Source: Eledone cirrhosa
Taxonomy: Eukaryota
Assembly: GCA_964016885.1 (NCBI GenBank)
Contig: OZ024740.1
Coordinates: 149,544,001 to 149,608,000 of the forward strand
Direction: 5' to 3'
DNA length: 64,000 bases
Shown: piece after piece, positions 15,101-54,583 of the stretch
Position numbering within the stretch: the stretch's first letter is position 1
Layout of the letters: every line of letters starts with the position of its first letter
Position numbers and translations under genes: made by a program
Notes under the pieces: model-generated
What the model saw: only the letters and a program-made list of their open reading frames with translations
What the model was told of the DNA's origin: nothing
Databases searched by the model: none

Positions 15101-15918
15101 TACGTGATTGATTCTTTTGAATTTGCCACCGACCAAGTAGGCAGTGATTTTCTCAATGGCTTGGAACTTAGTCCACGCTTTGCTTTTTTCCAACCACTGA
15201 ATTATTTTTGTATAAGTTCTCTGTGTCCACGCATTGCCTGGGAACTTAGCTGAGAATAGACTTCCCTGATGACGAAAGGATTTCTCCATGCGTTCCTTCG
15301 GAAACCATGTTTATTCCCTTTCAGAAACTAATTAGTTGGAGTGAAATTTTAGTAAGTTAATTTTTATAATTTTCTTATTTTACGTCTTTCATATTATTGT
15401 TCTGCATCACCTTGCATTGAACCACAAAGTTACTAAGACAAAACCTATATATTTGCTAGCATAGGTATGCATCTGTATATATATGTTGGTAGATATACTA
15501 ATTCTTTATAATTATCTCCAAATTATTTTGTTGAGCAAAAATTTGCCAAAACTGCTACTAGAGTTCATAGTAATGGTTCGGCTGCTGTCTTCTTAACACA
15601 CCACTCCTCACTGATTAACCTCGATGTCACGTGATTGATTCTTTTGAATTTGCCACCGACCAAGTAGGCAGTGATTTTTTTCAATGTCTTGGAACTTAGT
15701 CCACGCTTTGCTTTTTTCCATCCACTGAATTATTTTTGTATAAGTTCCCTGTGTCCACACATTGCCTGGGAACTTAGCTGAGAATAGACTTCCCTGATAA
15801 CGAAAGGATTTCTCCATGCGTTCCTTCGGAAACCATGTTTATTCCCTTTCAGAAACTAATTAGTTGGAGTGAAATTTTAGTAAGTAAGTTAATTTTTATA
15901 ATTTTCTTATTTTACGTC

Positions 15919-15923
<5 letters not shown>
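15101..15923 (+). repeat. About 527-bp unit in 1.55 tandem copies with HHR-like motif
   Basis: 15101-15392 repeated at 15629-15923; CTGATGA-CGAAAGGA..TCCTTCG-GAAA-CCATGT at 15266-15310; (TA)n on both sides. Confidence 0.7.
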
Positions 15924-15959
<36 letters not shown>

Positions 15960-16559
15960 GTGCTGCGCTGTTGCCAATATGAACATATGAATGAAAATAG
16001 ACCGAGAAACAAGAATGTCCTTCATCAGTAGTCTGCTGATAATCATTGGTATTACTTCGCATTAAAGACTAGATACCTAAAATCAGTACGAGCGATAACT
16101 AAATAAATTTATGGGGACAGAGGAAAGTAAACAAACAACATGGTAGTAATGCAACGTAAGGAGAGACAAGTCAATGAATCTTGTGGGCTTAAGTTCGACA
16201 AATCAAATGACGAGAAGAAATAGACGCGTCCGAGCCACGCGAAAAGTGAGAGAGGAAAGAATTTCATGCAGGTCAGACGGGAGGAAGTGAGAGAGGGGGA
16301 GTAGCAGAGAGTGAGTGAGTGAAAGTGTGAGGAAGGGGCCAGCTGAGAGTGTGTGACCAGCAGCGGGGGTGGAAGAAAGCAAGAGGTAAAGGGGAGAGAA
16401 GGTGACAGAAAAAATATGAACCACAGCGAAGGGAAAACATATATGTGAATGAAAAATGGCGTGCTCTCTCCCCCTTCTGTGGGTGTCGATAGTCTCTCTT
16501 CTTTTTTCAATCCCATTACCGTCACTTACCTCTGTGTTACTGTCATTATCTGTTTTCTG

Positions 16560-17700
16560 TGTCTGTGTGTCTGTTAAGATTGTGGTGGTGATGAGTGGCA
16601 TAGGATGTGTGTGTGATGTTGCTGTTGATGTGTGTTGTTGTTGTTGTTATTGTTGTTGTCTCTGTGTATGTTGTTATTATTGTTGTGTGTGTTGTTGTTG
16701 TTGTTATCGTTGTTTGTGTCTGTGTGTCTGTTGTTGTTGAGATGTGTGTTGTGTGTGCGTATGTTGTTCGTGTTGTTATTTTTGTTTTTGCTTTTGTTGT
16801 TGTTTTTGAAGCTCCAACGTAATTTTGTAAATGATTTTTCTATTTCTGACAAGCATCTTATCATATTTACCTTATTATATGTGGCATATTTAGGTGGTAG
16901 CTGTAATATGGATAGTTCATCAGTGTCCACTGTAGTGTTGTCGTATATATTTGTGTTGTTGTTGTTGAATTCGTCCATTAATGAGACGTCGGCCATGTTT
17001 ATACCATCAATCCTATCTGGATATATATCTCTATTTTCTGAAGTTTCTTGGTTTAGTTTCATCTGTTTGAGCCACGTTAATTTCTTGTTAAAGTGTTTGT
17101 TGCATTCTTGGATGATGTACTTTTCTTCTTCGTGTATAATGTTTATGTATTCTAATTTTTCTCTTTGTGTGGTTATTTCTCGTATTAGGTTACGCTTATG
17201 TTTTTCTTAATGACTTAATTCTCTGTAAATCTTTTTTATGTTTAGAATTAGTGTTCGTTTTAGTCTACAACTTACCAAAAAACAAGCAGATAATCTTCTT
17301 ACATCGGTGTTGGTGTAAACTCAGGATGAGGCACATTCTTTTATGAAGTGTAGTTGTCGAGCTGCTATTGTTTTCCTTAGGCAACAGAACATGGTGGTTT
17401 TCAGTATCTTGTTAGTTTGGCTAAAGCTTACGATATTTCGTTTCTGAATTTGTTTAGCAAGATTCTTTATCTGAAAACGTGTGTTCAAAAAGATATTGTT
17501 ATACTTTGGGAGGGTCATGTTGCCAATAAGAAACACACGCACCAGATGCTTTCACTCCAATTTATTATAAATTTAATTATAAATAAAAAAATAAAAAAAA
17601 TATAAGTTTCCGGTTGATTGGTTCCACAACCGGACGGTTGTTCATATATTGTCGAAATTCTTTCGTCACAATTCTGTGACCTCTTCAGTGACTGGGGATT
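16560..17700 (-). mobile_element. Penelope-like element 5' part (pLTR + ORF N-terminus), inverted relative to 17701-19686
   Basis: 17107-17700 is the reverse complement of 19098-19686; continues into DELSILQLPPKYA..IEKSFTKLRW, the PLE N-terminal motif. Confidence 0.85.
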
Positions 17701-18908
17701 ATTTCCTATTCATGGTATGGTGGGAGAATAAAGTTAAAGAACAATTAGAAGACAGCAACCTCTTAACCCTGATAATGCACTCTCGCTACGTTGATGATAT
17801 AAACATTGTAGTAAAAACACCCCCACTAGAGAACAGTCAGAAATTAGAGAAAAACACCATGGAAAGCATCCAGCAAATAGCTAACTCCATCCACCAGAGT
17901 ATTAGAGTTACTATAGACTACCCAAGCAAACACCCCAACCATCGATTACCTGTACTAGACACAGAGCTCTGGTTAGATACTATCAATAACAAAAAACAGA
18001 TCCTCCATTCCCATTATGCCAAACCCATGACTTCCAAATATCTGATCCACCGAAACTCAGCTGTTTCGGACCACACCAAAATCAACACACTGATTGCGGA
18101 TTTGGTACGGGTGATGAGAAACGTGTCCCGCATGTGCAACCCCAAAGAACTAGAGAGACACATACAACACTTCATCCACCGTATGCAGTTCTCTGGTTAC
18201 AATCAGAGAGATAAGATCAGAGTATGTAGAGGAGCCAGAACCAAATGGGAAAAAATGTTAAATAATGATACAAATGGGACCTGCCTCTTGTATAGGAGCA
18301 AATTTTGGAATAGAATAGAAAGAACTAGGAATAAGATTAATAGAATAAACTCATGGTATGATAGCAATAAATACCACAGTGTAATGTTCCTCGATACAAT
18401 CCCTAGAGGTGAATTAGCTTACAAATTCAGAAGGGCCCTAGATAAACATAAACTCAATATTAAGATAGTAGAAAGACCAGGTACCTCCATAAAAACACTT
18501 ATTAGCAATACATACCCTTTTCAAAGACCTCTCTGTATAGAAAAGAAATGTATAATCTGTAAATTAAGCCCCCATATTAACTGTAAACCTAGAAATGTAG
18601 TATATAGCATAAGATGTACTGAAGGACAATGTAGAGATAAGAATGTAGTGTACATAGTTCGTAGTATCGGAGAACGGATAAATGAACACTGGCGAGAGCT
18701 TCAAGATAGTAAAGAATCATCTGTACTCTACCAACATGCTAAAATAGAACATAAGGGTAAATTAGAGAACATAGAAATAAAAACAGAATCTACACACAGA
18801 AAAGACGCAATGTTTAGACAAATCACAGAGGCAATAAACATAAATGAACTCCAACCAAAATTAAATAGAAAACATGAATGGAATAGCAACATCACAACTT
18901 ACAATTAA
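17701..18908 (+). pseudogene. Penelope-like RT C-terminal half + GIY-YIG endonuclease (Neptune-like), 5'-truncated
   Basis: SRYVDD, LPVLD, HYAKP..YL...SA, Cys linker, NVVYSIRC..C..YI(GET missing)..RINEH..H..H, RQITEA..I..LN. Confidence 0.9.
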
Positions 18909-19104
18909 GGACAAAATGAAAACACACACACATAGAACAAACAACCAACCAGTAACATGTAAATAAACAAATAAATATACAAATATAAACACACACAGAC
19001 ACCCGGATGTAACATATGCGCAAACTAAGCACACAACACACACAAAAACAAGATGGCGTAGGACAGAACAAAGGAGAGGCACAAAAACAAAGAAAAGAAT
19101 CCCA

Positions 19105-19147
19105 GTCACTGAAGAAGTCACAGAATGTGTGACGAAAGAACTTTGAC
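19105..19147 (+). ncRNA. Minimal type I hammerhead in PLE pLTR
   Basis: GTCA-CTGAAGA-A-GTCACA gaatg TGTGAC-GAAA-GAAC-TT-TGAC; inverted copy near 17651-17692. Confidence 0.7.
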
Positions 19148-19686
19148 AATATATAAACAATCATCTGGTTGTGGAACCAGCCAACCAACCGGAAATTTAT
19201 AAATTCCTAAATTTATTGATTTAATTTATAATAAATTGAAGTGAAAGCATCTGGTGCGTGCGAATCTTATTGGCAACATGACCCTCCCAAAGTATAACAA
19301 TATCGGTTTCAACACACGTTTTCAGATAAAGAATCTTGCTAAACAAATTCAGAAACGAAATAGCGTAAGCCTTAGCCAAGCTAACAAGATACTGAAAACC
19401 ACCATGTTCTGTTGCCTAAGGAAAACAATAACATCTCGACAACTACACTTCATAAAAGAATGTGCCTCATCCCGAGTTTACACCAACACCGATGTAAGAA
19501 GGTTATCTGCTTGTTTTTTGGTAAGTTATAGACTAAAACGAACACTAATTCTAAACATAAAAAAGATTTACAGAGAATTAAGTCATTAAGAAAAACATAA
19601 GCGTAACCTAATACAAGAAATAACCACACAAAGAGAAAAATTAGAATACATAAACATTATACACGAAGAAGAAAAGTACATCATCC

Positions 19687-21606: not shown

Positions 21607-21607
<1 letters not shown>

Positions 21608-23042
21608 CGAAGGAAATGTGCTAACGAACCAGGTGGACCATAACGCACCAAAGTACTCAATACTTAGGGTAGTAGAGTTGGTAATAGGAACGAGTAGGAC
21701 CCCGACGGCTGAGCTCAAGCCGTTTCGACGGCTAATTCTGGACTAAATGAACATTTTTATCCTGGTATATGAATAGCCGAGCTTCTCAGGGGGTAATTCC
21801 ATATATGGTCAAAGTGATTGTCACAAGGATTGGTCAAAAGTTTGTTGTTGAGACACACAATTCTATCATGGCAATTTGTGGCAGGAAGGGGTAGCTGAAC
21901 CTGCCAGTAGAAGAAAGAGGGTGAGGGGGTGGAGGAAACCCAGTCGTGCGTTGATAGTGCCAACTACAGCAGGGCAGGAGGTCAAGGAAGTATACTAGGG
22001 AGGGGGAGGGCGAGGAAGTCGAAAAAATAAGTAAAACAATATGGGGTAAATATATAGAAAAATACCGAGAATGTTAAAAAAACAATTAAATATTAAAAAA
22101 AAAACAAAAAAAATTTTGGTTACTATTCCCCAAGGACAGCTATCAAGTCTCTCACTGGTACTGCTAGACTAAAGAAAAGTTTACTAGGTGGGACGGAATT
22201 ATAATGAGACCCTTTTAAGAGGTAGTAGTAATCAACCGAGTATATCTTACGGTGACGGGTCAACAAGTGGGGGGCCAAAATACTAAAGAAACTACCACGA
22301 AATAATAATTCAGAGTCCCGAGACTAATACGAAATAACTGTTTCCACCCCAGGCACAAGGCCAGCAACCACCCAGTGCAAAAAAATAAACTAATACGAAA
22401 TAATAATTCAGAATCCCGAAAAAGAATACTAATACTATCTCTATGGGTGCCGCTACGATACAAAAATTCTAGTGCCAACTACATAAATGCTCGTAAGAAG
22501 TATATGATAAATTTGATACGGAAAATTAATTAAGAATCCCCCCCCCCCCAAAAAAAAAATACTGATATACGAGAAATTAAAGCAAAGATACCACTAAGAA
22601 ATGTAGAAAGCACGGAAAAGGGGCAGCCATCGGATAAGAAGGCAAGTATCCGGGGTCTATCACATCTGCTATAAAAAGCGGAGTCGACCAAATCTATCAT
22701 AGAATAGGGGAAGGGGTGGGGGTACTGAGGCTACAAAGGACCGAGGGGCTGCCTCGGGTGGGCGAGAAAGTGAAAAGGACGAAGACAAAGAAAGAGGACT
22801 GGGGTGGAAGGACTAGGAAGGGATGGGGGAAGAAGGAAATATAGAGGAAGCGATAAAAAGATATAAAAGAAGATCTTATGTCTACTTTTGCAAGCAGGGG
22901 TTACCCATTACAAAGTCGGCAAGTGGGGTGTTACAGCCCTTGTCTACCCCCCCCCCCCCCCGGGTCATTATGGGGTTTGAGGGCGAGGTAAGTCCTACGC
23001 AATCTGTGTTTGCATGCAGTTACCAGTTCATATTTCTTTCAT
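21607..23042 (-). mobile_element. Inverted pLTR/3' UTR of the Naiad-like PLE at 23043
   Basis: 21607-21678 is the reverse complement of 23043-23114; abuts (TA)n; same family as 30606-30817. Confidence 0.7.
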
Positions 23043-23059
23043 CTCTACTACCCTAAGTA

Positions 23060-25170
23060 TTGAATACTTTGGTGCGTTATGGTCCACCTGGTTCCTTACC
23101 ACATTTCCTTCGTTATCTAGCTCCTATTCCCGTAGTAGAGCACTTTCCGACCCTACCACGCCGTATCCAGACTTTTCCGCTAAGCTCAAGTTCTTTCACC
23201 CGCACCATGCGAAAACACAACATCGACTTCTCTACCAAGAACATCCCAGTTCCACCGAAAAAACTTTACCTTCGGATGCTCACGCAAAAAATCGATCTAT
23301 TTGCGAAAAGACTTAGATGGAGAACTTTTTTCTACGACAGATATTGCGACAACCATGACTTCGGTACCAAGGAGAGATTCGGATTTAATACCTACAAATC
23401 TCTACCTCCGAACCCTATGCTCTCACCCTTCGAGAATGACCTTTTCCAACTGGTCAAGAACATTAAATTCAAACCCAGACACAACCGATTCCTACAAAAA
23501 CTCCGTAGCAACTTAACAGAGTATGATAACACCAATGACATCATGGTGCACTCGGATAAAACTGGTAACCTCTACTTCGTCAACCCCGACAGATACCACA
23601 CACTGATCAGAAGCAGCCTAAACTACACCTATAAAAAGGCTAACCACTCATGCATCGAGGACATAAATCGAGATGGACAACAAATTACCTCCAGCCTCGG
23701 GGTCGCCGACCGCACGGAACCCCTAGACCCACGGACACCCTACTTCACACTGAAGGACCACAAATCCGATTTCGACCGTAAACCTTCTATCAGGCTTATA
23801 AACCCAACGACGTCCGACATAGGGAGAATCAGCAAAAAAATCCTAGACCGCGTTATACCAAAAGTTAAGCAACACGCCAGACTTAGCCTATGGGTCAACA
23901 CCCAGGAAGTAATCTCATGGTTCAGCAATATGGAGGACAAACGAGACACTAAATTCATCCAGTTTGACATAGAGAGTTACTATGCTTCAATTACCTTACC
24001 GCTACTTACGGCTGCCTTGGACTTCGCCGAAACACTTGCGCCCTTCACCGACCAGGAAAGAAACATCATCCTCCACGCCAGGAAGACAGTCCTACTCTTC
24101 GACAACTCCAAGTGGATAAAGAGAGCTCCCGACTCACCCTTCGACGTCAGCATGGGCGCGACTGATTCGGCTGAGGTCACAGATCTTATAGGATTATTCC
24201 TACTAGCTAAATTCACCGATATGTTTCCTGCATTCGGCGGTGGATTGTACCGTGATGATGAGCTCCTTACCCTTAAAGGGTACAACCCCAGTAGTACAGA
24301 CCGGGTCGGTAAACAATTAATAAGCTTATTCCGCGACTGGGGATTTAAAATAACCCTACAAACGTCCCTGACCCGAGTAAACTTCCTGCACGTTACCCTT
24401 GACCTCGATAAGGATCTGTACTACCCATACAGGAAACCCAACGACAACCTGCACTACATCCACCGCCGGTAAAACCATCCTAGGAACATCACCAATAACC
24501 TGGGTAAAAACATCTCCCTCCGCATATCTCGTTTGTCCGCTAATGAGCAGATATTCGAGGAACATGCGCCTTATTACAACCAGGCCCTCAAGCGGAGTGG
24601 TTTCCGGGAGGAAATATCCTACTGTCCAGCTTCCATTAGCGGAACCAGCAGGCGACACCGCCACTCACGCAATGTAACATGGTTCAATCCTCCCCACAAC
24701 GCCGAGGTGACAACTCCTATCGGGAAAATCTTCTTTAGGCTCATTGAAAAACACTTCCCACTACAACACCGCTACCACAACATAATTAACAAAAATACCA
24801 TCAAACTCTCCTACAGCACCACACCAAACTTTGCACAAAACATCGTTTCCTCTAATAACAAAAAACTCAACCCCTATGGAAGAAATAACCTAAATAGCCG
24901 ACCAGGGGGTGCAACTGTCCCGATGGATCCGTTTTCCCCCTCGACAACAGATGCAGAGATCGTAATGTGATCTACCAGTGCAACGTGAGGACGGACACCT
25001 CCAACAAGGCTTATATAGGATTAACCACATGTGACTTCAAGACCCGGCTATGCCAACACAGACATACCTTCCGAAACACGGCCCGGCGTCACGCCACCAC
25101 ACTTTCGGGTCACATCTGGGACCTCAAGGATAACAATATTATCTATGATCTCACTTGGAGCTTACTGTCC
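23060..25170 (+). pseudogene. Naiad-like Penelope element ORF (RT + Cys knuckle + GIY-YIG), nearly full length
   Basis: KNIPVP, KRLRWR, SDKTGNLY, TLKDHK, RLINP, FDIESYY, FDVSMG, GLYRDD, WFNPP, CNC..P...C, YIGLT, FKTR..H; stop at 24472, frameshift near 24900, 3' end replaced by CR1. Confidence 0.9.
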
Positions 25171-25371
25171 TCTACTCCTTGGAGCGAAGACGGGAGAGAT
25201 ACGCAGTGATCTACATGTGGAAAATCCTGGAGGGACTAGCACCAAACTTTGGCATTGGGAGCTGGACCAACCGTCGAACAGGACATCACTGTGTGGTGCC
25301 AAAGGTCCCGTCTTCCACATCTAGAATAAGGAGCAGGTATTGCAATAGCCTGGGATTCAAGGGCCCTCAAC
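25169..25371 (+). mobile_element. CR1 fragment (same family as 19687-21510)
   Basis: Near-identical to 21094-21248 plus 49 extra bp. Confidence 0.88.
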
Positions 25372-26182: not shown

Positions 26183-26231
<49 letters not shown>

Positions 26232-26450
26232 ACACAACCCACATATATACATATATTTACACACACATACACACATACATACACATACATATATATATAT
26301 ATATACACACATATATATACACACATATATACACATACACATACATATACATATATATACATACACACACACATACCCATGTATATATACACACAACCAC
26401 ACACACACACACACTCAGACATACATAAATATAGAGACATACATACACAC

Positions 26451-26503
<53 letters not shown>

Positions 26504-26595
26504 TTTTGAATGCATCTCTTCTTTCCATGATATCCGGATTACATTGAGTTCTTCATACGGATTGGACACTACCGTAAACTTTTGGTAGATTTATC

Positions 26596-26629
<34 letters not shown>

Positions 26630-27115
26630 TAAATTGAAACAAAATGAAAACGAAATTTCATTTCTCACTCTTAGTATGGCACTTACTTAAATGTAAGTAT
26701 GCATGTATACGTACATACATATATGTATACAGACGTACAGTAGCATGCACATATATATATATATATACATATATACATACATATGCATACAGGTACACAT
26801 ACATATATGCACGTATCAGTTTAGCGGCGCTAACGTCGCTTTGTTCGTTTGTATGAAACTAGTACATCGTTCCTGTGTCAGTGTTGAACAAAAAGGTGAC
26901 GTGGTTGCCTTAACACCGTATGGGATAAATTCAGGCTGTTCAGTTTGTTTACATACAAACGAACAAAGCGACGTTAGCGCCGCTAAACTGATACGTGCAT
27001 ATATGTATGTGTACCTGTATGCATATGTATGTATATATGTATATATATATATATATGTGCATGCTACTGTACGTCTGTATACATATATGTATGTACGTAT
27101 ACATGCATACTTATA
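26630..27115. repeat. Fold-back fragment of retrozyme-like subfamily B
   Basis: Inverted arm 26630-26853, forward arm 26854-27115 starting at TGAAACTAGTA; matches 43862-44181. Confidence 0.88.
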
Positions 27116-27488
27116 TATTAATATATTAATGAAAAAGAACAAAGGAACTATTATGACATTACAACAAGTTTATTGCCGACAGCTTTATGCACTTATTGAG
27201 GGATTTTTTAAGGTGCTTCTACGAGGTCCCAAGTCCTTTACTTTTAATGCGTAAATTATAAATTATCTAATTTTTAACCTTCAATCCCTAACTCTTAGGC
27301 CCTCTTCAAATTCTCTTAACACCCCATAACCCATCCCTTTTACAACTCCGACAACCAATATAAAAGAGCCCCCTTAGAATATAGACCCCAAATATACAAA
27401 CGGAGCTGCTGATGTATACCACAATTTCAAACTGCTAATCTTGAGTGAAACGTTGATGTAAATAATGAACTTACAATCACATGTTATA

Positions 27489-27535
27489 TGCCTTGAAAAG
27501 TCCCACCATATGGTCGGACGAAACGGCTGTCGGCA
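27489..27535 (+). ncRNA. Type I hammerhead, U3-A8 core variant, in a PLE 3' fragment (27116-27690)
   Basis: TGCC-TTGAAAA-GTCC c ACCA ta TGGT c GGAC-GAAA-CGGCTG-TC-GGCA; 27125-27184 is an inverted copy of 27526-27586. Confidence 0.78.
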
Positions 27536-27708
27536 ATAAACTTGTAGTAATGTCATAATAGTTCCTTTGTTCTTTTTCATTAATATTTCTGCTCTGCTTA
27601 TCCGCATAGAGCTTAACTAGCTACCGTCACATATTTGGTAGGTCAGACGTGATCATCGCGATTCACATACGACCTACCATACATCTTACTTATATTAATA
27701 TATATATA

Positions 27709-27744
<36 letters not shown>

Positions 27745-28037
27745 TATATATATATTAATATATATATATATATATTAATATATATATATATATATATATA
27801 TTAATATATATATATATATATATTAATATATATATATATATTAATATATATATATTAATATATATATCTATATATATTAATATATATATATTAATATATA
27901 TATATATATATATTAATATATATATATATATATATTAATATATATATATATATTAATATATATATATTAATATATTAATATATATATATATATATTAATA
28001 TATATATATATATATTAATATATATATATATATATAT

Positions 28038-28188: not shown

Positions 28189-29780
28189 CTGTAAGAGACG
28201 ATCTGGACCTCTTAAACCACCTCCGCAAACATGTCAACAATGACACTATTATTGTGTCTTTCGATGTAGTGAATCTCTACACAACGATCCCACACCAATA
28301 CGGACTAGAAGCAATAGGATTCTGGCTAGAGAAATATCCCAATGAGATAACTGGCAGAATAGAAAATGGCTTCATCACCGAGGGATAAAAATTCATCTTA
28401 CAGAACAACTTTTTTGATTTCGATGGCAGTACTTACAAGCAAATATCGGGGACTGCGATGGGTACAAAAGCCGCTCCAACTTATGCCAACTTAGTCATGG
28501 CATACTTAGAAGTCCAGATATATGAACAGTCCAAATCAAAATACGGATTGAACTTCCACAAATATTTATCAGAGAATTGGAAACGCTACTTGGATGATTG
28601 TCTCATTCTTTGGTCCCACACACTCGACCAACTGAAGGATTTCAAAAACTTAATAAACGGCATCAATTAACACATCCAATTCACAATGGAATACAGCCAA
28701 GATCAACTCCCATTTCTGGACATCTTAATCTTAAAAAAAGACACAAATATTGAAATTGACATACACTACAAACCAACAGATTCCAAACAATACCTGCTAT
28801 TCACCTCCAACCATCCAAAGCACACGAAGACGAACATTCCTTTTAACCTAGCAAGAAGAATTTGCATAATTGTCTCCAATTATGAAACGCGAAATAAAAG
28901 ACTTCAAGAATTAAAGGAAATTCTACTCGAAAAAGAGTACCCACCATTACTAATAAATAATGGAATAGAAAAGGCTAAAGCAATAGGCATTGATGAATTA
29001 CGAAAACAGAAACAAATTCAAGGTACGTTCAATATTCTATCATATATCTCAACACACAACCCAAGAAATGCGGAAGCTTACAACACTATTCACAAGAACA
29101 TCCCACTACTAAAAAAAAACCCAAGAATCAAAAAAGCCCTTGAAACACACAAAATAATCAAAAGCAAAAGACAACCAAAATCACTGAAAACATTACTCAC
29201 CAATGCCAAATTACCTACCACAAACCCACAACCAACTGTCAAAAAATGTGGTCGCTCTAATTGTGGAACCTGCACTCACCTCATTGAAGGCAACACGTAT
29301 ACATTTAAATCAGGACAAAATTTTACTGTAAAAAATCACTTCACTTGCTCATTAAAAAATCTACTTTATGCCATTAAATGTAAAGGATGCAATGAAGATT
29401 ATATAGGACAAACTAAACTCACACTCAGAAACAGAATGACAGTTCATCGCCAACAATTACGAGATCCAACCACGAGACAGATACCACTAAGCGCATATCT
29501 AGACATTTTCCTAAACACACACACACGCACACACACACAATATATATATATATTCTCTTCATCTTAACATGCTAACCATACTCCCACACACACAACACCC
29601 ATACACACACATAACAACCCCCACTCCCACACACACAACTCCCTCCCCCATTTCTAATAATAGAATCACTTTCCTACACACACAAAATATATATATTCTC
29701 TCCATCTTAACATACTCCCACACACACACACATAACACCCATATACCCCCCCCCATTTCTATTAATAGAATCCTCTTCCA

Positions 29781-30605: not shown

Positions 30606-30610
<5 letters not shown>

Positions 30611-30814
30611 AACCAGTAAGACCCCGACAGCTGAGCTCAAGCCGTTTCGACGGCTAATTCTGGACTAATTCTGGACTAGTCCAGAATTAGCCGTCGAAAC
30701 GGCTTGAGCTCAGCTGTCGGGGTCTTACTGGTTCCTATTACCCACTCTACTACCTCAAGTATTGAGTACTTTGGTGCGTTATGGTCCACCTGGTTCCTTA
30801 CCACATTTCCTTCG

Positions 30815-30817
<3 letters not shown>
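30606..30817. repeat. Fold-back palindrome of Naiad-like pLTR end inside (TA)n
   Basis: About 60-bp perfect arms around GGACTAGTCC (30673-30682) with an 11-bp duplication at the centre; homologous to 21607-21746 and 23043-23114. Confidence 0.9.
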
Positions 30818-30861
<44 letters not shown>

Positions 30862-30865
<4 letters not shown>

Positions 30866-31128
30866 GAAATTCTATTTAAATTGTTGGGATACAACAAGCA
30901 AATATTTTTATAACTGATATAAAGCACTCAACAAATAATTGGAGTAAAAATACGATATTAACAAATGGAAACTCTATTTATAAAACCATATTTATTTCAT
31001 TATACATATTTCAAGGACACCAAGTTAAATTATGGTGTGCTTTCTTCGGATAAAATATAATATAGTGCAGTTTTATAAATGAATATTGACATACCCTTAA
31101 AGAATGCGACCATTACTGTTGGAAGCTC
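30862..31128 (-). mobile_element. PLE 3' terminus with HHR (family also at 45848 and 53406)
   Basis: Homologous to 45848-46110; minus-strand TATTTTAT-CCGAAGA..GAAA-TATGTA-TA-ATGAAATA at 30993-31057. Confidence 0.75.
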
Positions 31129-34100
31129 CATACGTACATATATATATATTATAATAAATATTCGGTGAATCCATACGTACATATATATATATGTGTGCAT
31201 GTATGTATATACATACTACTCTACGTCTGTATACATATATGTATGTTCGTATACATACTTATATTTAAGTAACAGCCATACTAAGAGAAATGAAATTTCG
31301 TTTCATTTTTTCCGTTTATCGTTTTAGGTACGCCCGGCCGATTAACTCACTCGATATGTAAATTAGGCTGCTCAGCCGTTAATATACATAAGGAAAGTAT
31401 ATACTTTCAGACGTTCAATCATCTGGCAGGAAGGTATGGTATATGTTGCTGACAATAGCTAATAAGCTTGAAACTAGTAGAGCGTTCCTTTGTCAGTGTT
31501 GAACAAATGAGCAACGATGGTTGCTAGACACTACGGCTTAATCCGGGATGTATGTTTAAAAACACCCCGAGCATTATAATACATGTTCGGTGAATCCATA
31601 CGTACATATATATGTGTGCATGTATGTATATATATATACATACTACTGTACGTCTGTATACATATATGTATGTACGTATACATACTTATATTTAAATAAC
31701 AGCCGTACTAAATTCCGTTTCACTTTTTTCCGTTTATCGCTTTCGGAGCGCCGGCCGATTAACTCACTCGATATGTAAATTAGGCTGCTCAGCCCTTAAT
31801 ATGCATAAGGAAAGTATATACTTTCAGACGTTCAATCATCTGGCAGAAAGGTATACGTTGCTGACGATAGCTAATAAGCTTTAAACTAGTACATTGTTCC
31901 TTTGTTAGTGTTTAACAAATGAGCAACGATGGTTGCTAGACACTGTACTGCTTAATCCGTGATGTTTGTTTACAAACACCGCGAGCATTATAATAAATGT
32001 TCGGTGAATCCATACGTATATATATATGTGTGCATGTATGTATATATATATACATACTACTGTACATCTGTATACATATATGTATGTACGTATACATATT
32101 TATATTTAAGTAACAGCCGTACTAAGAGAGAGAAATGAAATTTCGTTTCATTTTTTTCGTTTATCGATTTCGCTGCGCCCGGCCAATTAACTCACCCGAT
32201 AAGTAAATTAGGCTGCTCAGACGTTAATATGCATAAGGAAAGTATATACTTTCAGACGTTCAATCATCTGGCAGGAAGGTATACGTTGCTGACGATAGCT
32301 AATAAGCTTGAAACTAGTACATTGTTCCTTTGTCAGTGTTGAACAAATGAGCAACGATGGTTGCTCGACACTGTACTGCTTAATCCGGGATGTTTGTTTA
32401 CAAACACCGCGAGCATTATAATAAATGTTCGGTGAATCCATACGTACATATATATATGTGGGCATGTATGTATATATACATACATACTACTGTACGGTTG
32501 TATACATATATGAATGTACGTATACATACTTATATTAAAGTAACAGCCGTACTAAGAGTGAGAAATGAAATTTCATTTTTTTTTTCCGTTATCGTTTTCG
32601 GTGCGCCCGGCCGATTAACTAACTCAATATGTAAATTAGGCTGCTCAGCCGCTAATATGCATAAGGAAAGTATATACTTTCAGACGTTCAATCATGTGGC
32701 AGGAAGGTATACGTTGCTGACGATAGCTAAGAAAATTGAAACTAGTACAACGTTCCTTTGTTAGTGTTGAACAAATGAGAAACGATGGTTGCTAAAGACT
32801 GTACGGCTTAATCCAGGATATTTGTTTACACACACACCGAGCCTCATAATAAATGTTCGGTAAATCCATACGTACATATATATATGTGTGCATATATGTA
32901 TATATATATATACATACTACTGTACGTCTGTATACATATATGTAAGTACGTATAAATACTTATATTTAAGTAAGAGCCGTACTAAGAGTGAGAAATAAAA
33001 TTTCGTTTCATTTTTTCCGTTTATCGTTTTCGGTGCGCCCGGCCGATTAACTAACCCGATATGTAAATTAGGCTGCTCGGCCGTTAATATGCATCAGGAA
33101 AGTATATACTTTCAGACGTTCAATCATCTGGCAGGAAGGTATACGTTACTGACGATAGCTAATAAGCTTGAAACTAGTGCAGTGTTCTTTGTCAGTGTTG
33201 AACAAATGAGCAACGATGGTTGCTAAAGACTGTACGGCTTAATCCAGGATATTTGTTTACACACACACCGAGCATTAAAGTAAATGTTCGGTGAATCCAT
33301 ACGTACATATATATATGTGTGCATGTATGTATATATATATATATACATACTACTGTACATCTGTATACATATATGCAAGTACGTATAAATACTTCTATTT
33401 AAGTAACAGCCGTACTAAGAGAAATGAAATTTCGTTTCATTTTTTCCGTTAATCGTTTTCGGTGCGCCCGGCCGATTAACTCACCCGATATGGAAATTAG
33501 GCTGCTCGACCGTTAATATGCATCAGGAAAGTATATACTTTCAGACGTTCAATCATCTAGCAGGAAGGTATACGTTGCTGACGATAGCTAATAAGCTTGA
33601 AATTAGTACAGCGTTCCTTTGATAGTGTTGAACAAATGAGCAACGATGGTTGCTAGACACTGTACGGCTTAATCCGGGATGTATGTTTAAAAACACCCCG
33701 AGCATTATAATAAATGTTCAGTGAATCCATACGTACATATATATATGTGTGCATGTATGTATATATATATATACATACTACTGTACGTCTGTATACATAT
33801 ATGTAAGTACGTATAAATACTTATATTTAAGTAAGAGCCGTACTAAGAGTGAGAAATAAAATTTCGTTTCATTTTTTCCGTTTATCGTTTTCGGTGCGCC
33901 CGGCCGATTAACTCACCCGATATGTAAATTAGGCTGCTCGGCCGTTAATATGCATCAGGAAAGTATATACTTTCAGACGTTCAATCATCTGGCAGGAAGG
34001 TATACGTTACTGACGATAGCTAATAAGCTTGAAACTAGTGCAGTGTTCTTTGTCAGTGTTGAACAAATGAGCAACGATGGTTGCTAGACACTGTACTGCG

Positions 34101-37100
34101 TAATCCAGGATGTTTGTTTACAAACACCCCGAGCATTATAATAAATCTTCGGTGAATCCATACGTACATATATATATGTGTGCATGTATGTATATATATA
34201 TATACATACTACTGTACGTCTGTATACATATATGTAAGTACGTATAAATACTTATATTTAAGTAACAGCCGTACTAAGTGAAATGAAATTTCGTTTCATT
34301 TTTTCCGTTTATCCTTTTAGGTGCGTCCGGCCGATTAACTCACCCGATATGTAAATTAGGCTGCTCAGCCGTTAATATGCATAAGGAAAGTATATACTTT
34401 CAGACGTTCAATCATCTGGCATGAAGGTAAACGTTGCTGACGATAGCTAATAAGCTTGAAATTAGTACAGCGTTCCTTTGATAGTGTTGAACAAATGAGC
34501 AACGATGGTTGCTAGACACTGTACGGCTTAATCCGGGATGTATGTTTAAAAACACCCCGAGCATTATAATAAATGTTCGGTGAATCCATATGTACATATA
34601 TATATGTGTGCATGTATGTATATATATATATACATACTACTGTACGTCTGTATACATATATGTATGTACGTATACATACTTATATTTAAATAACAGCCGT
34701 ACTAAGTGTGAGAAATGAAATTCCGTTTCATCTTTTTCCGTTTATCGCTTTCGGTGCGCCGGCCGATTATCTCACTCGATATGTAAATTAGGCTGCTCAG
34801 CCCTTAATATGCATAAGGAAAGTATATACTTTCAGACGTTCAATCATCTGGCAGGAAGGTATACGTTGCTGACGATAGCTAATAAGCTTGAAACTAGTAC
34901 ATTGTTCCTTTGTCAGTGTTGAACAAATGAGCAACGATGGTTGCTAGACACTGTACGGCTTAATCCGGGATGTATGTTTAAAAACACCCCGAGCATTATA
35001 ATAAATGTTCGGTGAATCCATACGTACATATATATATGTGTGCATGTATGTATATATATATACATACTACTGTAAGTCTGTATACATATATGTATGTACG
35101 TATACATATTTATATTTAAGTAACAGCCGTACTAAGAGTGAGAAATGAAATTTCATTTCATTTTTTCCGTTTAACATTTTCGGTGCGCCCGACCGATTAA
35201 GTCACACGATATTTAAATTAGGCTGCTCAGCCGTTAATATGCATCAGGAAAGTATATACTTTCAGACGGTCAATCAATTGGCAGGAAGATATACGTTGCT
35301 GACGATAGCTAATAAGCTTGAAACTAGTACAGCGTTTCTTTGTCAGTGTTGAACACATGAGCAACGATGGTTGCTAGACACTGTTCGACTTAATACGGGA
35401 TGTTTGTTTACAAACACACCGAGCATTATAATAAATGTTCGGTGAATCCATACGTACGTATATATATATATGTGCATGTATGTATATATACATACTACTG
35501 TACGTCTGTATACATATATGTATGTACGTATACATACTTATATTTAAGTAACAGCCGTACTAACAGTGAGAAATAAAATTTCGTTTCATTTTTTTCGTTT
35601 ATCGCTTTCGGTGCGCCGGCCGATTAACTCACTCGATATGTAAATTAGGCTGCCCAGCCCTTAATATGCATAAGGAAAGTATATACTTTCAGACGTTCAA
35701 TCATCTGGCAGGAAGGTATACGTTGCTGACGATAGCTAATAAGCTTGAAACTAGTACATTGTTCCTTTGTCAGTGTTGAACAAATGAGCAACGATGGTTG
35801 CTAGACACTGTACTGCTTAATCCGGGATGTTTGTTTACAAACTCCGCGAGCATTATAATAAATGTTCGGTGAATCCATACGTACATATATATATGTGTGC
35901 ATGTATGCATATATATACATACATACTACTGTACGGTTGTATACATATATGAATGTACGTATACATACTTATATTAAAGTAACAGCCGTACTAAGAGTGA
36001 GAAATGAAATTTCATTTTTTTTTCCGTTATCGTTTTCGGTGCGCCCGGCCGATTAACTAACTCAATATGTAAATTAGGCTGCTCAGCCGCTAATATGCAT
36101 AAGGAAAGTATATACTTTCAGACGTTCAATCATCTGGCAGGAAGGTATACGGTGCTGACGATAGCTAAGAAACTTGAAACTAGTACAACGTTCCTTTGTT
36201 AGTGTTGAACAAATGAGCAACGATGGTTGCTAAAGACTGTACGGCTTAATCCAGGATATTTGTTTACACACACACCGAGCATTATAATAAATGTTCGGTG
36301 AATCCATACGTACATATATATATGTGTGCATGTATGTATATATACATATAGATACTACTGTACGTCTGTATACATATATGTAAGTACGTATAAATACTTA
36401 TATTTAAGTAACAGCCGTACTAAGAGAAATGAAATTTCGTTTCATTTTTTCCGTTATCGTTTTCGGTGCGCCCGGCCGATTAACTAACTCAATATGTAAA
36501 TTAGGCTGCTCAGCCGCTAATATGCATAAGGAAAGTATATACTTTCAGACGTTCAATCATCTGGCAGGAAGGTATACGTTGCTGACGATAGCTAAGAAAC
36601 TTGAAACTAGTACAACGTTCCTTTGTTAGTGTTGAACAAATGAGCAACGATGGTTGCTAAAGACTGTACGGCTTAATCCAGGATATTTGTTCACACACAC
36701 ACCGAGCATTATAATAAATGTTCGGTGAATCCATACGTACATATATATATATGTGTGCATGTATGTATATATACATATACATACTACTGTACGTCTGTAT
36801 ACATATATGTAAGTACGTATAAATACTTATATTTAAGTAAGAGCCGTACTAAGAGAAATGAAATTTCGTTTCATTTTTTCCGTTTATCCTTTTAGGTGCG
36901 CCCGGCCGATTAACTCACTTGATATGTAAATTAGGCTGCTCAACCGTTAATATGCATAAGGAAAGTATATACTTTCAGACGTTCAATCATTTGGCAGGAA
37001 GATATACGTTGCTGACGATAGCTAATAAGCTTGAAACTAGTACAGCGTTCCTTTGTCAGTGTTGAACAAATGAGCAACGATGTTTGTTAGACACTGTACC

Positions 37101-39774
37101 GCTTAATCAAGTATGTTTGTTTACACACACCCCGAGCATTATAATAAATGTTCAGTGAATCCATACGTACATATATATATATGTGTGCATGTATGTATAT
37201 ATATATATAGATACTAGTGTACGGTTGTATACATATATGTATGTTCGTATACATACTTATATTTAAGTAACAGCCATACTAAGAGAAAAGAAATTTCGTT
37301 TCATTTTTCCGTTTATCGTTTTCGGTACGCCCGGCCGATTAACTTACACGATATGTAAATTAGGCTGCTCAGTCTTTAATATGCATAAGGAAAGTATATA
37401 CTTTCAGACGTTCAATCATCTGGCAGGAAGGTATACGTTGCTGACGATAGCTAATAAGTTTTAAAATAGTACAGCGTTCCTTTGTCGGTGTTGAACAAAT
37501 GAGCAACGATGGTTGCTAGACACTGTACGACTTAATCCGGGATGTTTGTTTACAAACACACCGAGCATTATAATAAATGTTCGGTGAATCCATACGTACA
37601 TATATATAAGTGTGCATGTATGTATATATACATACTACTGTACGTCTGTATACATATATGTATCCCACCTCCCGTATACTAACACCCACTAACACCTCTT
37701 CACCAAACTACACACACACCAGTACACCACACTCCCTCTATAGAACCACACACACCCTTCTCTCCCCGCTCCACCCACACCCCCGCTCCACACTCACTCA
37801 TCCCACTAACACCCCTACTAATACACACACACACACACACACTCTCCTCACTCCAACTTTCACACCTACCCATCCTCGCCCCCTTACCATTCAAACGACT
37901 GCTGCTATGCCCTTCTGACCACCTCCCAGCACCAACAGACCACAGCACTCCCACTGCTGACCACTTCCTGTTGCGCGCGCACCCCACATCTCTCCTCTTC
38001 CGACCACCGCTTCATGGATTACCCACACGCAGAAATTGACTTATAACCAATCCTCCAAACATCCTTGGAACTTACCAACTTTTCAACCATCCTCTTACGT
38101 CATCACCTATATAACTCACCCACACACACACCCCCAAACATTTTTTTCTCCACACGCCACCCACACCCACAACACGCTTAAACCCCACACACACGTGCTT
38201 CCCACCAAATATTTACACCCTCAGCCTCCTGATTCCTCTCCCCCCACCCCCTATCCACACACGCACAGACACTCCGACCCACAAAAAGACCCCCCACACA
38301 CACCTCTTCCTGAACATGCAACCCCGTTCTTCCCCCAACCCTTACTTTCACATACACACACACACACACACACCTACACACACACACCACATTCAGCCCT
38401 CCCCGCTCGGACACCCCGTCTCCCTCTCCCCACTCCACCCGCCACCACCCCTACTCAACCCACACCCTTCCACCACCTGTTTACCCCACTTTTAATTTCA
38501 GTTTATTTTGATCATTCCTTTATTTTTAAATTTTCTCATTCCTTGTATTTTGATCATGCTTTATTTTTATTTCTTATCTTTATTTGTTAATTTTTCATTC
38601 GCACCGTTTCCTTTCGCTATATGTCTCTCCACCACTCCCCTACACACCTTTTGAACTCTGTTCCCACACACTTCTCACCTGAGTAAGGACTTATGCCCGA
38701 AACGTCGTCCCCCACCTACCCACCACTCTCCTGAGCGTGAAATTAATAAACATTTATTGTACTGCCTCTCTGTTTTGTCCCTGTTTAAATTTTTCCATTA
38801 CGTATACATACTTATATTTAAGTAACAGCCGTACTAAGACTGAGAAATGAAATTTCTTTTGATTTTTTCCGTTTATCGTTTTCGGTGCGCCCGGCCGATT
38901 AACTCACTTGATATGTAAATTAGGCTGCTCAGCCGTTAAAATGCATAAGGAAAGTATATACTTTCAGACGTTCAATCATTTGGCAGGAAGATATACGTTG
39001 CTGACGATAGCTAATAAGCTTGAAACTAGTACAGCGTTCCTTTTTCAGTGTTGAACAAATGAGCAACGATGGTTGCTAGACACTGTACGGCTTAATCCGG
39101 GATGTTTGTTTACAAACACACCGAGCCTTATAATAAATGTTCGGTGAATCCATAAGTACATATATATATATGTGTGCAAGTATGTATATATATATACATA
39201 TTATTGTACGTCTGTATACATATATCTATGTACGTATACATACTTATATTTAAGTAACAGTCGTACTAAGAGTGAGAAATGAAATTTCGTTTCATTTTTT
39301 CCGTTTATCTTTTTGGTGCACCCGGCCGATTAACTCACTCGATATGTAAATTAGGCTGCCCAGCCGTTAATATGCATAAGGAAAGTATATACTTTCAGAC
39401 GTTCAATCATCTGGCAGGAAGGTGTACATTGCTGACGATAGCTAATAAGCTTGAAACTAGTACAGCGTTCCTTTGTTAGTGTTGAACAAATGAGCAACGA
39501 TGGTTGCTAGACACTGTACGGCTTAATCCAGGATGTTTGTTTACACACACACCGAGCATTATAATAAATGTTCGGTGAATCCATACGTACATATATATAT
39601 GTGTGCAAGTATGTATATATATATATATACTACTGTACGTCTGTATACATATATGTATGTTCGTATACATACTTATATTTAAGTAACAGCCATACTAAGA
39701 GAAATGAAATTTCGTTTCATTTTTTCCGTTTATCGTTTTCGGTACGCCCGGCCGATTAACTCACTCGATATGTA

Positions 39775-39777
<3 letters not shown>
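31128..39777 (+). repeat. Tandem array of ~430-bp hammerhead-containing units (retrozyme-like satellite, subfamily A)
   Basis: 17 HHR cores at 31449, 31861, 32289, 32717, 33149, 33578, 34010, 34437, 34869, 35299, 35726, 36155, 36582, 37012, 37441, 39001, 39432; consensus ACGTTG-CTGACGA-T-AGCT aata AGCT-T-GAAA-CTAG-TA-CARCGT. Confidence 0.95.
37664..38798 (+). mobile_element. CA/C-rich PLE 3' UTR fragment inserted in the array
   Basis: Interrupts a unit at ATATGTAT|TACGTATAC; degenerate PLE-type HHR CTGAGTAA-GGAC ttat GCCC-GAAAC-GTC at 38679-38706; AATAAA downstream. Confidence 0.7.
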
Positions 39778-40673
<896 letters not shown>

Positions 40674-41261: not shown

Positions 41262-41448
41262 ACACCGAGCATTATAATAAATGTTCGGTGAATCCATACG
41301 TGCATATATGTGTGCATGTATGTGTATATATATATACATACTACGGTACGTCGGTATACATATATGTATGTACGTGTACATACTTATATTTAAGTAACAG
41401 CCGTACTAAGAGTGGGAAATGAAATATCGTTTCATTTTTTCCGTTTAT
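41262..41448 (+). repeat. Partial subfamily A unit
   Basis: ACACCGAGCATTATAATAAATGTTCGGTG through hairpin and T-run, then (TA)n. Confidence 0.88.
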
Positions 41449-42386: not shown

Positions 42387-42392
<6 letters not shown>

Positions 42393-43658
42393 GTTAAAAA
42401 TGTACATCCACATATGTATACTGAAATACTAGTATGCATATGAATACACACACGTATACATATGTAGATGTACCGAGTTTTTCACTGGTCACTTTACTGT
42501 GAGTGTCCAGCTATTCTGTATGTAAACACACAGACAAACCGGTTTTTAGAGTCATACTGGTTTTTGAGAAAACACCTTTCCTCTATTCTCCAGAAAGCCA
42601 GACAAGGAATATTGAACTAGTTTCGATGTTGTTACAACTCATCAGCAATATTTACCTATCTTCCGGCCTTTCTAGAGAATCGTAAAAGCACATATCGTTA
42701 TATGCTTTTTCTATGAAAATTAGTAGTGGGCAGACTAATTTGCATAGAGCGTGAGTACGTACCGGTTCAACGGAGACGATAAAAACAAATAACCAAACGA
42801 AATTAAATTTCGTTTCGTTTGTAACTCACTTTTGTATGACTGACGCTTAAACAATTAAGTTAAAAATGTACATCCACATATGTATACTGAAATACTAGTA
42901 TGCATATGAATACACACACGTATACATATGTAGATGTACCGAGTTTTTCACTGGTCACTTTACTGTGAGTGTCCAGCTATTCTGTATGTAAACACACAGA
43001 CAAACCGGTTTTTAGAGTCATACTGGTTTTTGAGAAAACACCTTTCCTCTATTCTCCAGAAAGCCAGACAAGGAATATTGAACTAGTTTCGATGTTGTTA
43101 CAACTCATCAGCAATATTTACCTATCTTCCGGCCTTTCTAGAGAATCGTAAAAGCACATATCGTTATATGCTTTTTCTATGAAAATTAGTAGTGGGCAGA
43201 CTAATTTGCATAGAGCGTGAGTACGTACCGGTTCAACGGAGACGATAAAAACAAATAACGAAACGAAATTAAATTTCGTTTCGTTTGTAACTCACTTTTG
43301 TATGACTGACGCTTAAACAATTAAGTTAAAAATGTACATCCACATATGTATACTGAAATACTAGTATGCATATGAATACACACACGTATACATATGTAGA
43401 TGTACCGAGTTTTTCACTGGTCACTTTACTGTGAGTGTCCAGCTATTCTGTATGTAAACACACAGACAAACCGGTTTTTAGAGTCATACTGGTTTTTGAG
43501 GAAACACCTTTCCTCTATTCTCCAGAAAGCCAGACAAGGAATATTGAACTAGTTTCGATGTTGTTACATCTCATCAGCAATATTTACCTATCTTCCGGCC
43601 TTTCTAGAGAATCGTAAAAGCACATATCGTTATATGCTTTTTCTATGAAAATTAGTAG
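42387..43658 (-). repeat. Tandem array of 466-bp hammerhead-containing units (subfamily C), 2.7 copies
   Basis: Units start at 42387, 42853, 43319; minus-strand TATTG-CTGATGA-GWTG taacaa CATC-GAAA-CTAG-TT-CAATA at 42606-42664, 43072-43130, 43538-43596. Confidence 0.93.
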
Positions 43659-43686
43659 AAGGCCGGAAGATAGGTAAATATTGCTG

Positions 43687-44623
<937 letters not shown>

Positions 44624-51947: not shown

Positions 51948-51951
<4 letters not shown>

Positions 51952-52158
51952 TAAACGGAATAGAAAATGCTGACAAATTGTTCACAGTTGAAAAATGATT
52001 TAATTAGGAATAAAAGAGTATTAGTGATTGTATACCCATACAATCACTAATACTCTTTTATTCCTAATTAAACCATTTTTCAACTGTGAACAATTTGTCA
52101 GCATTTTCTATTCCGTTTACCAATATATAATACCTTGTGTGTTACACCTCTATTCTTT

Positions 52159-52161
<3 letters not shown>
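51948..52161. repeat. Near-perfect ~90-bp-arm hairpin inside (TA)n
   Basis: TTGGTAAACGGAATAG..GTGATTGTAT accc ATACAATCAC..CTATTCCGTTTACCAA, centre near 52037. Confidence 0.9.
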
Positions 52162-52243
<82 letters not shown>

Positions 52244-52309
52244 AGTATATATTTATATATATATATATATGTAATATATATTTATATATATATTTATATA
52301 TATATAATT

Positions 52310-52356
52310 ATGTGTGTATACGTACATACATATATGTATACAGACGTACAGTAGCA

Positions 52357-52422
<66 letters not shown>

Positions 52423-52803
52423 GAGGTACACATACATATATGCACATATCAGTTTAGCAGACGCTTATTATAACGCCGCTTTGTTCGTTTGTAAAAAAAC
52501 TGAACAGCCTGAATTTTTATGCCGTACGGTGTTACACCGTACGGCATAAAAATTCAGGCTGTTCAGTTTACAAACGAACAAAGCGGCGTTATAATAAGCG
52601 TCTGCTAAACTGATATGTGCATATATGTATGTGTACCTGTATGTATATATATATATGTATGTATATATATATATATATATATGCATGCTACTGTACGTCT
52701 GTATACATATATGTATGTACGTATACACACATACTTACATTTAAGTAAGTGGCGTACTAAGAGTGAGAAATGAAATTTCGTTTTCATTTTTTTTCAACTC
52801 ATT
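52310..52803. repeat. Fold-back fragment of subfamily B variant
   Basis: Centre GCCGTACGGTGT-T-ACACCGTACGGC (52521-52545); right arm homologous to 43921-44181. Confidence 0.88.
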
Positions 52804-53405: not shown

Positions 53406-53408
<3 letters not shown>

Positions 53409-54528
53409 AAAGTTATATTTAAAATTGTTGGGTTACAACTAGTAAATATTTATAACTGATATAAAAGCACTCGACAAATATTTGGAGTATATTTACAATA
53501 TTAAATAAATGGAAACTATATTTATAAAACCATATTTATTTCATTATATATATTTCGGGGATATCATATTAACAATATGCTATGCCTTCCTCAGACAAAA
53601 TACAATATAAACAGTTTTATAGATAAATAGATTCGACATACCGTAATAACATCGACTTGCATTTGAAGAGGTTAAGCTGGCAGTGAAAAAATTTTACACA
53701 GAGAGAAAGAAAGAGAGAAAAAAGAAAGAAAGACAGAAAACGAAGAAAAGGAAGAAAAAGAAGAAATGCATGGAACAAAATAGAGAGATGGAAAGATAGA
53801 TAAAGAGAAGAACTTCATGTAAAAAAACACAGAAAGAGATATATATATATATATAGAGAGAGGAAATAGAGATAGATACATATATATATAGAGAGAAAAT
53901 TAGGTAGTGGGAGGTCAGTTGAGTAAATGTATCAATAATACATTTATTTATTTATTTATTTATTTAGCTCTAGTATTAATGTAAGGGAGATATATATAGA
54001 GAGAAAAAAAATATATATATTTTTTCTCTATATATATATCTCCCTTACATTAATACTAGAGCTAAATAAATAAATAAATAAATAAATGTATTATTGATAC
54101 ATTTACTCAACTGACCTCCCACTACCTAATTTTCTCTATATATATATATGTATCTATCTCTATTTCCTCTCTCTCTATATATATATATCTCTTTCTGTGT
54201 TTTTTTACATGAAGTTCTTCTCTTTATCTATCTTTCCATCTCTCTATTTTGTTCCATGCATTTCTTCTTTTTCTTCCTTTTCTTCGTTTTCTGTCTTTCT
54301 TTCTTTTTTTCTCTCTTTCTTTCTCTCTGTGTAAAATTTTTTCACTGCCAGCTTAACCTCTTCAAATGCAAGTCGATGTTATTACGGTATGTCGAATCTA
54401 TTTATCTATAAAACTGTTTATATTGTATTTTGTCTGAGGAAGGCATAGCATATTGTTAATATGATATCCCCGAAATATATATAATGAAATAAATATGGTT
54501 TTATAAATATAGTTTCCATTTATTTAAT

Positions 54529-54533
<5 letters not shown>
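53406..54533. repeat. About 1-kb perfect palindrome of PLE 3' terminus, one HHR per arm
   Basis: Arms about 53495-54014 and 54015-54533; HHR TATTTTGT-CTGAGGA..GAAA-TATATA-TA-ATGAAATA at 54426-54491 (+) and 53537-53602 (-). Confidence 0.9.

Positions 54534-54583
<50 letters not shown>

Follow-up and report, generated by a model that had tools for sequence, protein, structure and literature searches.

Our analysis of a 64,000-nt stretch of Eledone cirrhosa DNA (hereafter the window) indicates that three families of hammerhead repeats, A, B, and C, were probably integrated by an RT/GIY-YIG protein that an autonomous PLE supplied in trans. Their insertions have a head-to-head geometry, end at two fixed sites, and are built from a non-coding tandem unit; the arms of one insert are non-nested, and another insertion is a chimera of two families. 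The enzyme that mobilises animal retrozymes has remained open since their description, and earlier support for PLEs consisted of co-occurrence and pLTR homology. PLEs were proposed as strong candidates (PMC7229834), and a preprint argued for PLE mobilisation from co-occurrence and pLTR phylogeny, calling the mechanism open (bioRxiv 10.64898/2026.07.22.740005). A plain inverted pair is weak evidence because repair and LINE twin priming also make fold-backs. The one-sided tail, in contrast, has been called unique to PLEs (PMC11167929), so that its occurrence on ORF-less hammerhead repeats would amount to a direct footprint. Three retrozyme head-to-head events in this single window carry the PLE reading, and the features on which it draws are collected in the table.

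Features of the window discussed in the text (coordinates are window positions; "reference" denotes the reference copy of family B)
Feature	Position	Strand	Description
Hydra-type PLE ORF, broken	23207..25176	+	RT and C-terminal nuclease; sequence upstream is the family D tail
Insert 1, tailed arm	26629..26853	-	reference 43958-44181 plus 3 nt, 98.7%; RNA 3' end leftward into (TA)n
Insert 1, tail-less arm	26854..27113	+	reference 43862-44119, 96.6%
Comparator E	27123..27692		fold-back, 106-nt extension, adjoins insert 1
Comparator D	30609..30815		closed PLE fold-back in (TA)n, 80-nt one-sided extension
Family A array	31129..39777	+	15.2 + 2.3 units of about 430 nt, broken at 37664-38798
Family A fragment	41266..41448	+	tailed end in TA-rich sequence
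Family C array, left arm of chimera	42388..43658	-	2.7 x 466 nt; tail-less end 42388 in (TA)n
Family C sense piece between C and B arms	43659..43687	+	29 nt
Reference B copy	43685..44181	+	a complete 468-nt unit and 29 nt of a second; tailed end lies in (TA)n
Hammerhead core of B, type I	43842..43872	+	CUGAUGA...GAAA...GUA; short stem III, bulged stem I
Family B tail	44120..44181	+	62 nt between the two end sites; folds as two small hairpins
Comparator F	49881..50392		fold-back, 130-nt extension
Fold-back K	51949..52162		40-nt extension; outside earlier list; hammerhead or ORF not seen
Insert 2, tail-less arm	52305..52532	-	reference 43921-44119, one mismatch near end
Insert 2, tailed arm	52534..52803	+	reference 43921-44181
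Fold-back G	53407..54535		87-nt extension; outside earlier comparator list

The three families are related tandem repeats with a type I hammerhead in every unit. Tandem-repeat measurement across the window gave 430 nt x 15.2, plus x 2.3, for the family A arrays and 466 nt x 2.7 for family C (hammerheads at 42592-42663, 43058-43129, and 43524-43595), and the 468-nt period of family B was visible in a 29-nt motif that recurs at that spacing within 43685-44181. A gap-permissive alignment placed B at 83% identity to A and 70% to C (shuffled controls 59-64%), with a score of 338 against 121-158 for shuffled controls. A strict motif scan recovered 13 hammerhead cores in A and B; family C resembled Rfam HH9 (E 6e-6 to 4e-5) below the HH9 gathering score, and Rfam at the gathering threshold returned 0 matches in the window. 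Matches of the mir-297 type were dismissed as TA-hairpin noise. Across 7 aligned ribozyme regions, 8/20 predicted pairs had changed on both sides. The longest stop-free frames reached 103 aa in B, 126 aa in A, and 60 aa in C, against about 700-900 aa for PLE proteins, and two PLE protein profiles found no match in the three families. By anatomy, A, B, and C fit animal non-LTR retrozymes with putatively self-cleaving RNA.

The arrays differed in their internal uniformity. Units of the C array showed 1-2 differences from one another, which fits a single RT event. Those of array A were 90-99% alike (mean 92% over 15 units), and units 3 and 11, at 99%, are near-identical without being adjacent, so that DNA-level turnover was also at work; the pattern is at odds with the copying of a single circle and suggests a heterogeneous multimeric template or such turnover. 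On its left side array A stands head to head with element G (minus strand, tailed end in TA; 22-nt slip-back at the joint), and its right end at 39777 is a non-canonical 3-nt microhomology joint to repeat J, which itself ends in TA; the G/A/J assembly (30863-40673) is perhaps one chimeric cDNA or the result of serial insertions. The interruption at 37664-38798 is a C-rich element with a hammerhead-core-like motif recognised by eye. Sequence L (40835-41448), which resembles 16241-16308 at 75%, stops just after a CTGATGA motif and is followed by the tailed family A fragment, a possible template switch. A TA-flanked partial tandem at 14942-15922 (period about 528 nt; hammerhead-like motifs at 15266 and 15794) is perhaps a fourth retrozyme-like family lacking the inverted arm.

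The original prediction held that two family B fragments each consist of an inverted and a forward arm within (TA)n, and alignment to the reference B copy bore this out for both. The RNA 3' ends of both inserts face outwards into TA, and self reverse-complement alignment gave one-sided unpaired extensions of 65 and 66 nt. In insert 1, the arms are 100% identical across the 160 nt that they have in common and meet at a 2-nt TG microhomology. Starting within the hammerhead at a point 11 nt short of the predicted cleavage site, the tail-less arm carries 96 nt that have no counterpart in the tailed arm. With the tail on one arm and these 96 nt of upstream sequence on the other, the arms are non-nested, so that neither was copied from the other as DNA; since each holds sequence absent from the other, both derive from a longer template. 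Target-site duplications are unreadable in (TA)n; the TATATTA found on both sides of insert 1 is a weak sign compatible with one. On the right, insert 1 is separated from its neighbour by just ~10 nt of TA-rich sequence. The compound (TA)n tract at 26188-28035 holds three inserts side by side, namely an F tail at 26497-26599, insert 1, and fold-back E.

Insert 2 pivots at 52533 on a palindrome, and its arms are nested; taken alone, it could be a snap-back. Its arms have in common variants that are not in the reference B copy and differ from each other by a 4-nt indel and a substitution outside the TA run. Because its 6-nt insertion also occurs in public contigs of two sequencing runs, this subfamily already existed. 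The hammerhead is incomplete in insert 1, where only the GAAA half is present, and absent from insert 2; since neither insert crosses a unit junction, neither alone proves a non-coding template.

The ends of the two inserts are fixed. Each has one end at reference 44181 (to +3) and the other at 44119. The same two sites recur across families: the reference B copy also stops at 44181, the family A fragment stops at 41448, which is homologous to that site, and the C array stops at the position that corresponds to 44119. Counted over all three families, 7/8 RNA-3' ends coincide with one or the other of these homologous sites and adjoin TA or TA-rich sequence, the exception being the joint at 39777. 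Simulations with a unit length of 467 and a tolerance of 4 nt placed 7/8 ends on two sites in 0/60,000 draws from uniform ends and in 16/60,000 when ends were limited to TA-compatible positions, numbers that are merely indicative because the sites were defined post hoc and the three families were pooled. A null weighted by TA microhomology, of which the retrozyme ends show 1-4 nt, placed 7/8 ends on some two sites in 18,168/60,000 draws; its clusters lie in the internal TA run of the unit, where 0/8 of the real ends are found, and the observed sites receive 0.2% of its weight.

A third insertion is the chimera at 42388-44181, which reads, in order, TA, tail-less C on the minus strand, 29 nt of C in sense, tailed B on the plus strand, and TA, with no TA between the C and B arms. 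The 29-nt piece is bounded by 3-nt microhomologies (TAG and TGA) at its two joints. The rule of one tailed and one tail-less end is thereby kept with two different families. A tail-less C arm joined to a tailed B arm implies two RNA templates, and because both arms cross unit junctions, multimers without an ORF were integrated. Two successive insertions are possible, in which case the second would have to have hit the 5' end of the first exactly. We tentatively suggest, as an idea that falls a little short of probable, that the PLE integration complex holds two RNAs, that retrozyme RNAs are interchangeable within it, that multi-unit arrays form in one RT event, and that the start sites are cis elements conserved across ~70%-identical families. 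Priming at one nick would then use the tail-less site of one family, priming at the other nick the tailed site of a different family, and template jumps between RNAs would yield heterologous head-to-head chimeras; at 42388-44181, the B-arm cDNA would have switched to C RNA and copied 29 nt of it ahead of the joint. The G/A junction (30863-39777) is possibly another such chimera.

The original prediction had likened the inserts to five "bona fide PLE" ends in the same window. Three of the five proved to be linked to PLE coding sequence, and one of these three, comparator D, is a closed TA-flanked fold-back. Its extension matches the sequence just upstream of the PLE ORF at 23207-25176 at 96% over 73 nt. 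The other two PLE-linked stretches are not closed fold-backs: 16560-19686 has TA at neither end, and the right arm of 21607-23114 continues into the ORF. Two PLE protein profiles gave no coding match in E, F, G, or K, and for want of PLE coding sequence the bona fide status of E and F is not established; moreover, the right end proposed for E (27586) omits its tail. Comparator F has a second tailed end at 26497-26599, other G copies at 30863 and 45848 have the same tailed end site, and in each of D, F, and G the repeated copies share a fixed tailed end of their own. All 7/7 closed fold-backs that were measured (inserts 1 and 2, D, E, F, G, and K; hand-picked, not blind), PLE-linked D among them, carry a one-sided extension, spanning 40-130 nt over all fold-backs here against the published 30-40 nt. 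A relaxed hammerhead scan of D, E, F, G, J, and K found the motif in a G copy only; motif-like sequence in E, F, and J was seen by eye alone.

In a census of 41 segments between TA tracts, self-inversion scores reached at least 100 in 5, all of them part of B, D, F, or K, and were no higher than 34 in the others; E and G are absent from the census because tract borders merged or split them. One TA-flanked segment that reads as SINE-like (44369-44588) was not inverted, a weak control as the single clear non-PLE element in the window. An inverted pair of 90 nt (10095-10182 and 11630-11719; 86%) lies outside TA, with its members 1.4 kb apart and enclosing LINE-like sequence, and broken PIF1 helicase frames at 341-1964 are probably a Helitron remnant.

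Candidate sources of the enzyme are present as remnants of both Hydra-type and Neptune-type PLEs. Pfam named no PLE RT piece and gave one weak GIY-YIG match among 9 proteins, so profiles were built from homologues. These located PLE coding sequence at 23207-25176, 47631-48775, 55850-57117, and 17688-18890 with 16664-17032, and more weakly at 28392-29492. Hydra-type hallmarks comprise a short ORF, DKT and RWK-like motifs, a CxCX5C linker, and a C-terminal nuclease (PMC8557442). The regions at 23207-25176, 47631-48775, and 55850-57117 carry Hydra-type motifs (DKT and RWR in 23057-24472; CxCX5C in 47816-48778), the other PLE regions a CX4CxxC linker (both also as in PMC8557442), with the clade assigned by motifs alone; Hydra-type homologues measure ~700 aa. 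The stretches 54665-57353 and 46683-48848 are 5'-truncated Hydra-type copies between TA tracts, the former with 220 nt of its own UTR repeated directly at the 5' end. The best homologue of 17595-18908 is an Octopus vulgaris protein (64%). Comparison of the retrozyme tail and unit with the PLE and PLE-like regions of the window, 13 in all, yielded no convincing match, with 1/52 comparisons beating all shuffles. That one, between the A/B tail and repeat J, did not stand out in a ranking of 1,398 windows and was dropped.

In public sequence collections, the C/B stretch was partly present in 20/24 sequencing runs listed, and no RNA run carried it among those listed. The family was found in 3/4 sequencing runs compared, all 3 of which also showed the C tandem joint, and loose contig ends continued into the previous unit in 2 runs. 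Among 13 loose ends listed of 157, none lay at the predicted C sites, in a comparison that omitted the 3' part of B with both sites. No strand-change joint occurred among the matches listed, on contigs of only ~100 nt. Pattern scans returned 0 matches in viral sequences, 0 and 0 in metagenomes, and 0 and 0 in prokaryote genomes. Contigs of another organism have only the B hammerhead (about 43832-43866) in common, with unrelated sequence on both sides; they possibly represent another family with the same ribozyme, and a partner lead.

Family-fixed tailed and tail-less ends, the non-nested arms of insert 1, and a chimera that follows the same rule support the proposal that non-coding units undergo PLE-type integration. 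The accompanying claim that they are not only amplified as a DNA satellite is also fair, in that the integration signature is present and array A shows DNA-level turnover too. In the mechanism that we envisage, an autonomous PLE would supply an RT/GIY-YIG protein that binds retrozyme RNA in trans and nicks the two strands of a (TA)n tract. RT would be primed from one nick at the distal start site of the unit, giving the tailed end, and from the other at a second site 62-65 nt upstream, giving the tail-less end. Both cDNAs would proceed towards the RNA 5' end, halt at variable points, and be joined head to head via 1-3 nt of microhomology or a palindromic pivot, yielding an inverted pair with RNA 3' ends outward and a tail on one side only; arrays may later be expanded or homogenised at the DNA level. 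Two-strand cleavage and extension, as well as the two tail-bounding start sites, are assumed by analogy with the lizard PLE: purified Poseidon protein cuts and extends both strands of AT-rich DNA, its RT starts at two internal sites bounding the genomic tail, ribozyme cleavage is not required in vitro, and a dimer is predicted (PMC11167929). PLE insertions show an inverted 5'-truncated copy and a one-sided tail, and (TA)n targeting is found in almost all Hydra families (PMC8557442). Pivot palindromes have been attributed to self-priming (PMC3846280); this could explain insert 2, but neither insert 1 nor the chimera. The PLE protein as agent here, its clade, and the form of its template, whether linear multimer or circle, are what we infer; because insert 1 extends 11 nt beyond the predicted cleavage site and several such sites lie within the arrays, the template was uncleaved or circular.

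The main competing account, which we consider unlikely, is that transposition was in cis: inserts 1 and 2 would be 3' fragments of an autonomous PLE outside the window whose pLTR is near-identical to B, and the arrays would be pLTR-derived satellites formed at the DNA level. The absence of a unit junction from either insert suits this account, as does a partner search that covered the window only. In Xenopus, 24/57 retrozyme families match known TEs, 21 of those 24 being annotated PLEs that match at pLTRs, and local tandem amplification after insertion has been suggested (bioRxiv 10.64898/2026.07.22.740005). Yet insert 1 is 97-99% identical to a reference B copy that is ORF-less, crosses a unit junction, and ends at the tailed site in (TA)n, and the 2.7-unit C array itself ends at the tail-less site, while the C tandem joint and the loose ends into a previous unit recur in the public runs (3/4 and 2, respectively). 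As the reference B and C arrays themselves bear these ends, ORF-less multimers were themselves integrated.

Integration by an enzyme acting in trans also has to be set against two other sources of inversion. In L1 twin priming, the arms do not overlap, the internal priming site is variable, and synthesis starts at the RNA 3' end. A LINE RT working in trans in this manner is in our judgement highly improbable, given that the arms here overlap by 160-230 nt, that both start sites are fixed and internal to the tandem RNA, and that poly(A) is absent, even though LINE-like RT fragments are common in the window (labelled by reading translations) and LINEs have been named as candidates alongside PLEs (PMC7229834). 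Breakage at (TA)n cruciforms, with repair or template switching that copies a nearby satellite in inverted orientation, or else an assembly artefact, would draw on features that are present here: (TA)n and the B unit can both form long hairpins (z = -8 as RNA), the ends carry the TA microhomology noted above, and insert 2 combines nested arms with a palindromic pivot. This explanation is nonetheless very unlikely, for the ends are fixed across families and lie outside the internal TA stretch, the arms of insert 1 are non-nested, and the 4-nt indel and substitution between the arms of insert 2 are unlike a read-through artefact. Self-inversion in the census, moreover, was found in B, D, F, and K and spared the lone SINE-like segment.

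Set beside known systems, the insertions combine familiar parts. L1 twin priming likewise involves two nicks and two cDNAs joined head to head by microhomology, but the present arms overlap and have two fixed, internal start sites. Published accounts of tails or inverted pairs on retrozyme insertions were not found in the mainly open-access literature searched; in the available text of PMC8969392, PMC6431247, PMC11722881, and PMC8490949 there is nothing on junctions, the main text of the preprint mentions neither "tail" nor "junction" (bioRxiv 10.64898/2026.07.22.740005), and three supplementary files of PMC11167929 lack the words tail, inverted, and retrozyme. As in animal non-LTR retrozymes, the units are tandem and non-coding, with one type I hammerhead each, low GC, and structured RNA, and PLEs reside in the same genome (PMC7229834; bioRxiv 10.64898/2026.07.22.740005); at 430-468 nt, they lie at or just above the 150-450 bp metazoan range of PMC7229834. 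Non-autonomous Chlamys PLEs such as MRC1 are likewise ORF-less with PLE-type ends and moved in trans (PMC8557442), and the pLTR-framed cargo of Adineta is also moved in trans by PLE machinery (PMC3846280). Chlamys elements usually share 3' similarity with an autonomous family, whereas no such partner was found in the window, and most Chlamys lack canonical hammerheads, whereas the unit here is a hammerhead repeat. The closest parallel is the PLE insertion unit itself (PMC8557442, PMC3846280, PMC11167929), with the same head-to-head arms, a tail at one end, a (TA)n target, a palindrome or microhomology pivot, and fixed start sites; the present insertions differ in their ORF-less tandem arms, a 62-65 nt tail (published 30-40 nt), and one event involving two families. 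They name two exact positions on a 468-nt RNA at which PLE RT should start, and the two-family chimera is relevant to how PLE integration is completed, namely whether one or two templates are used. As far as we found in the literature searched, a known integration signature has here been met on the substrate where it was predicted, and it is the junction evidence that is new.
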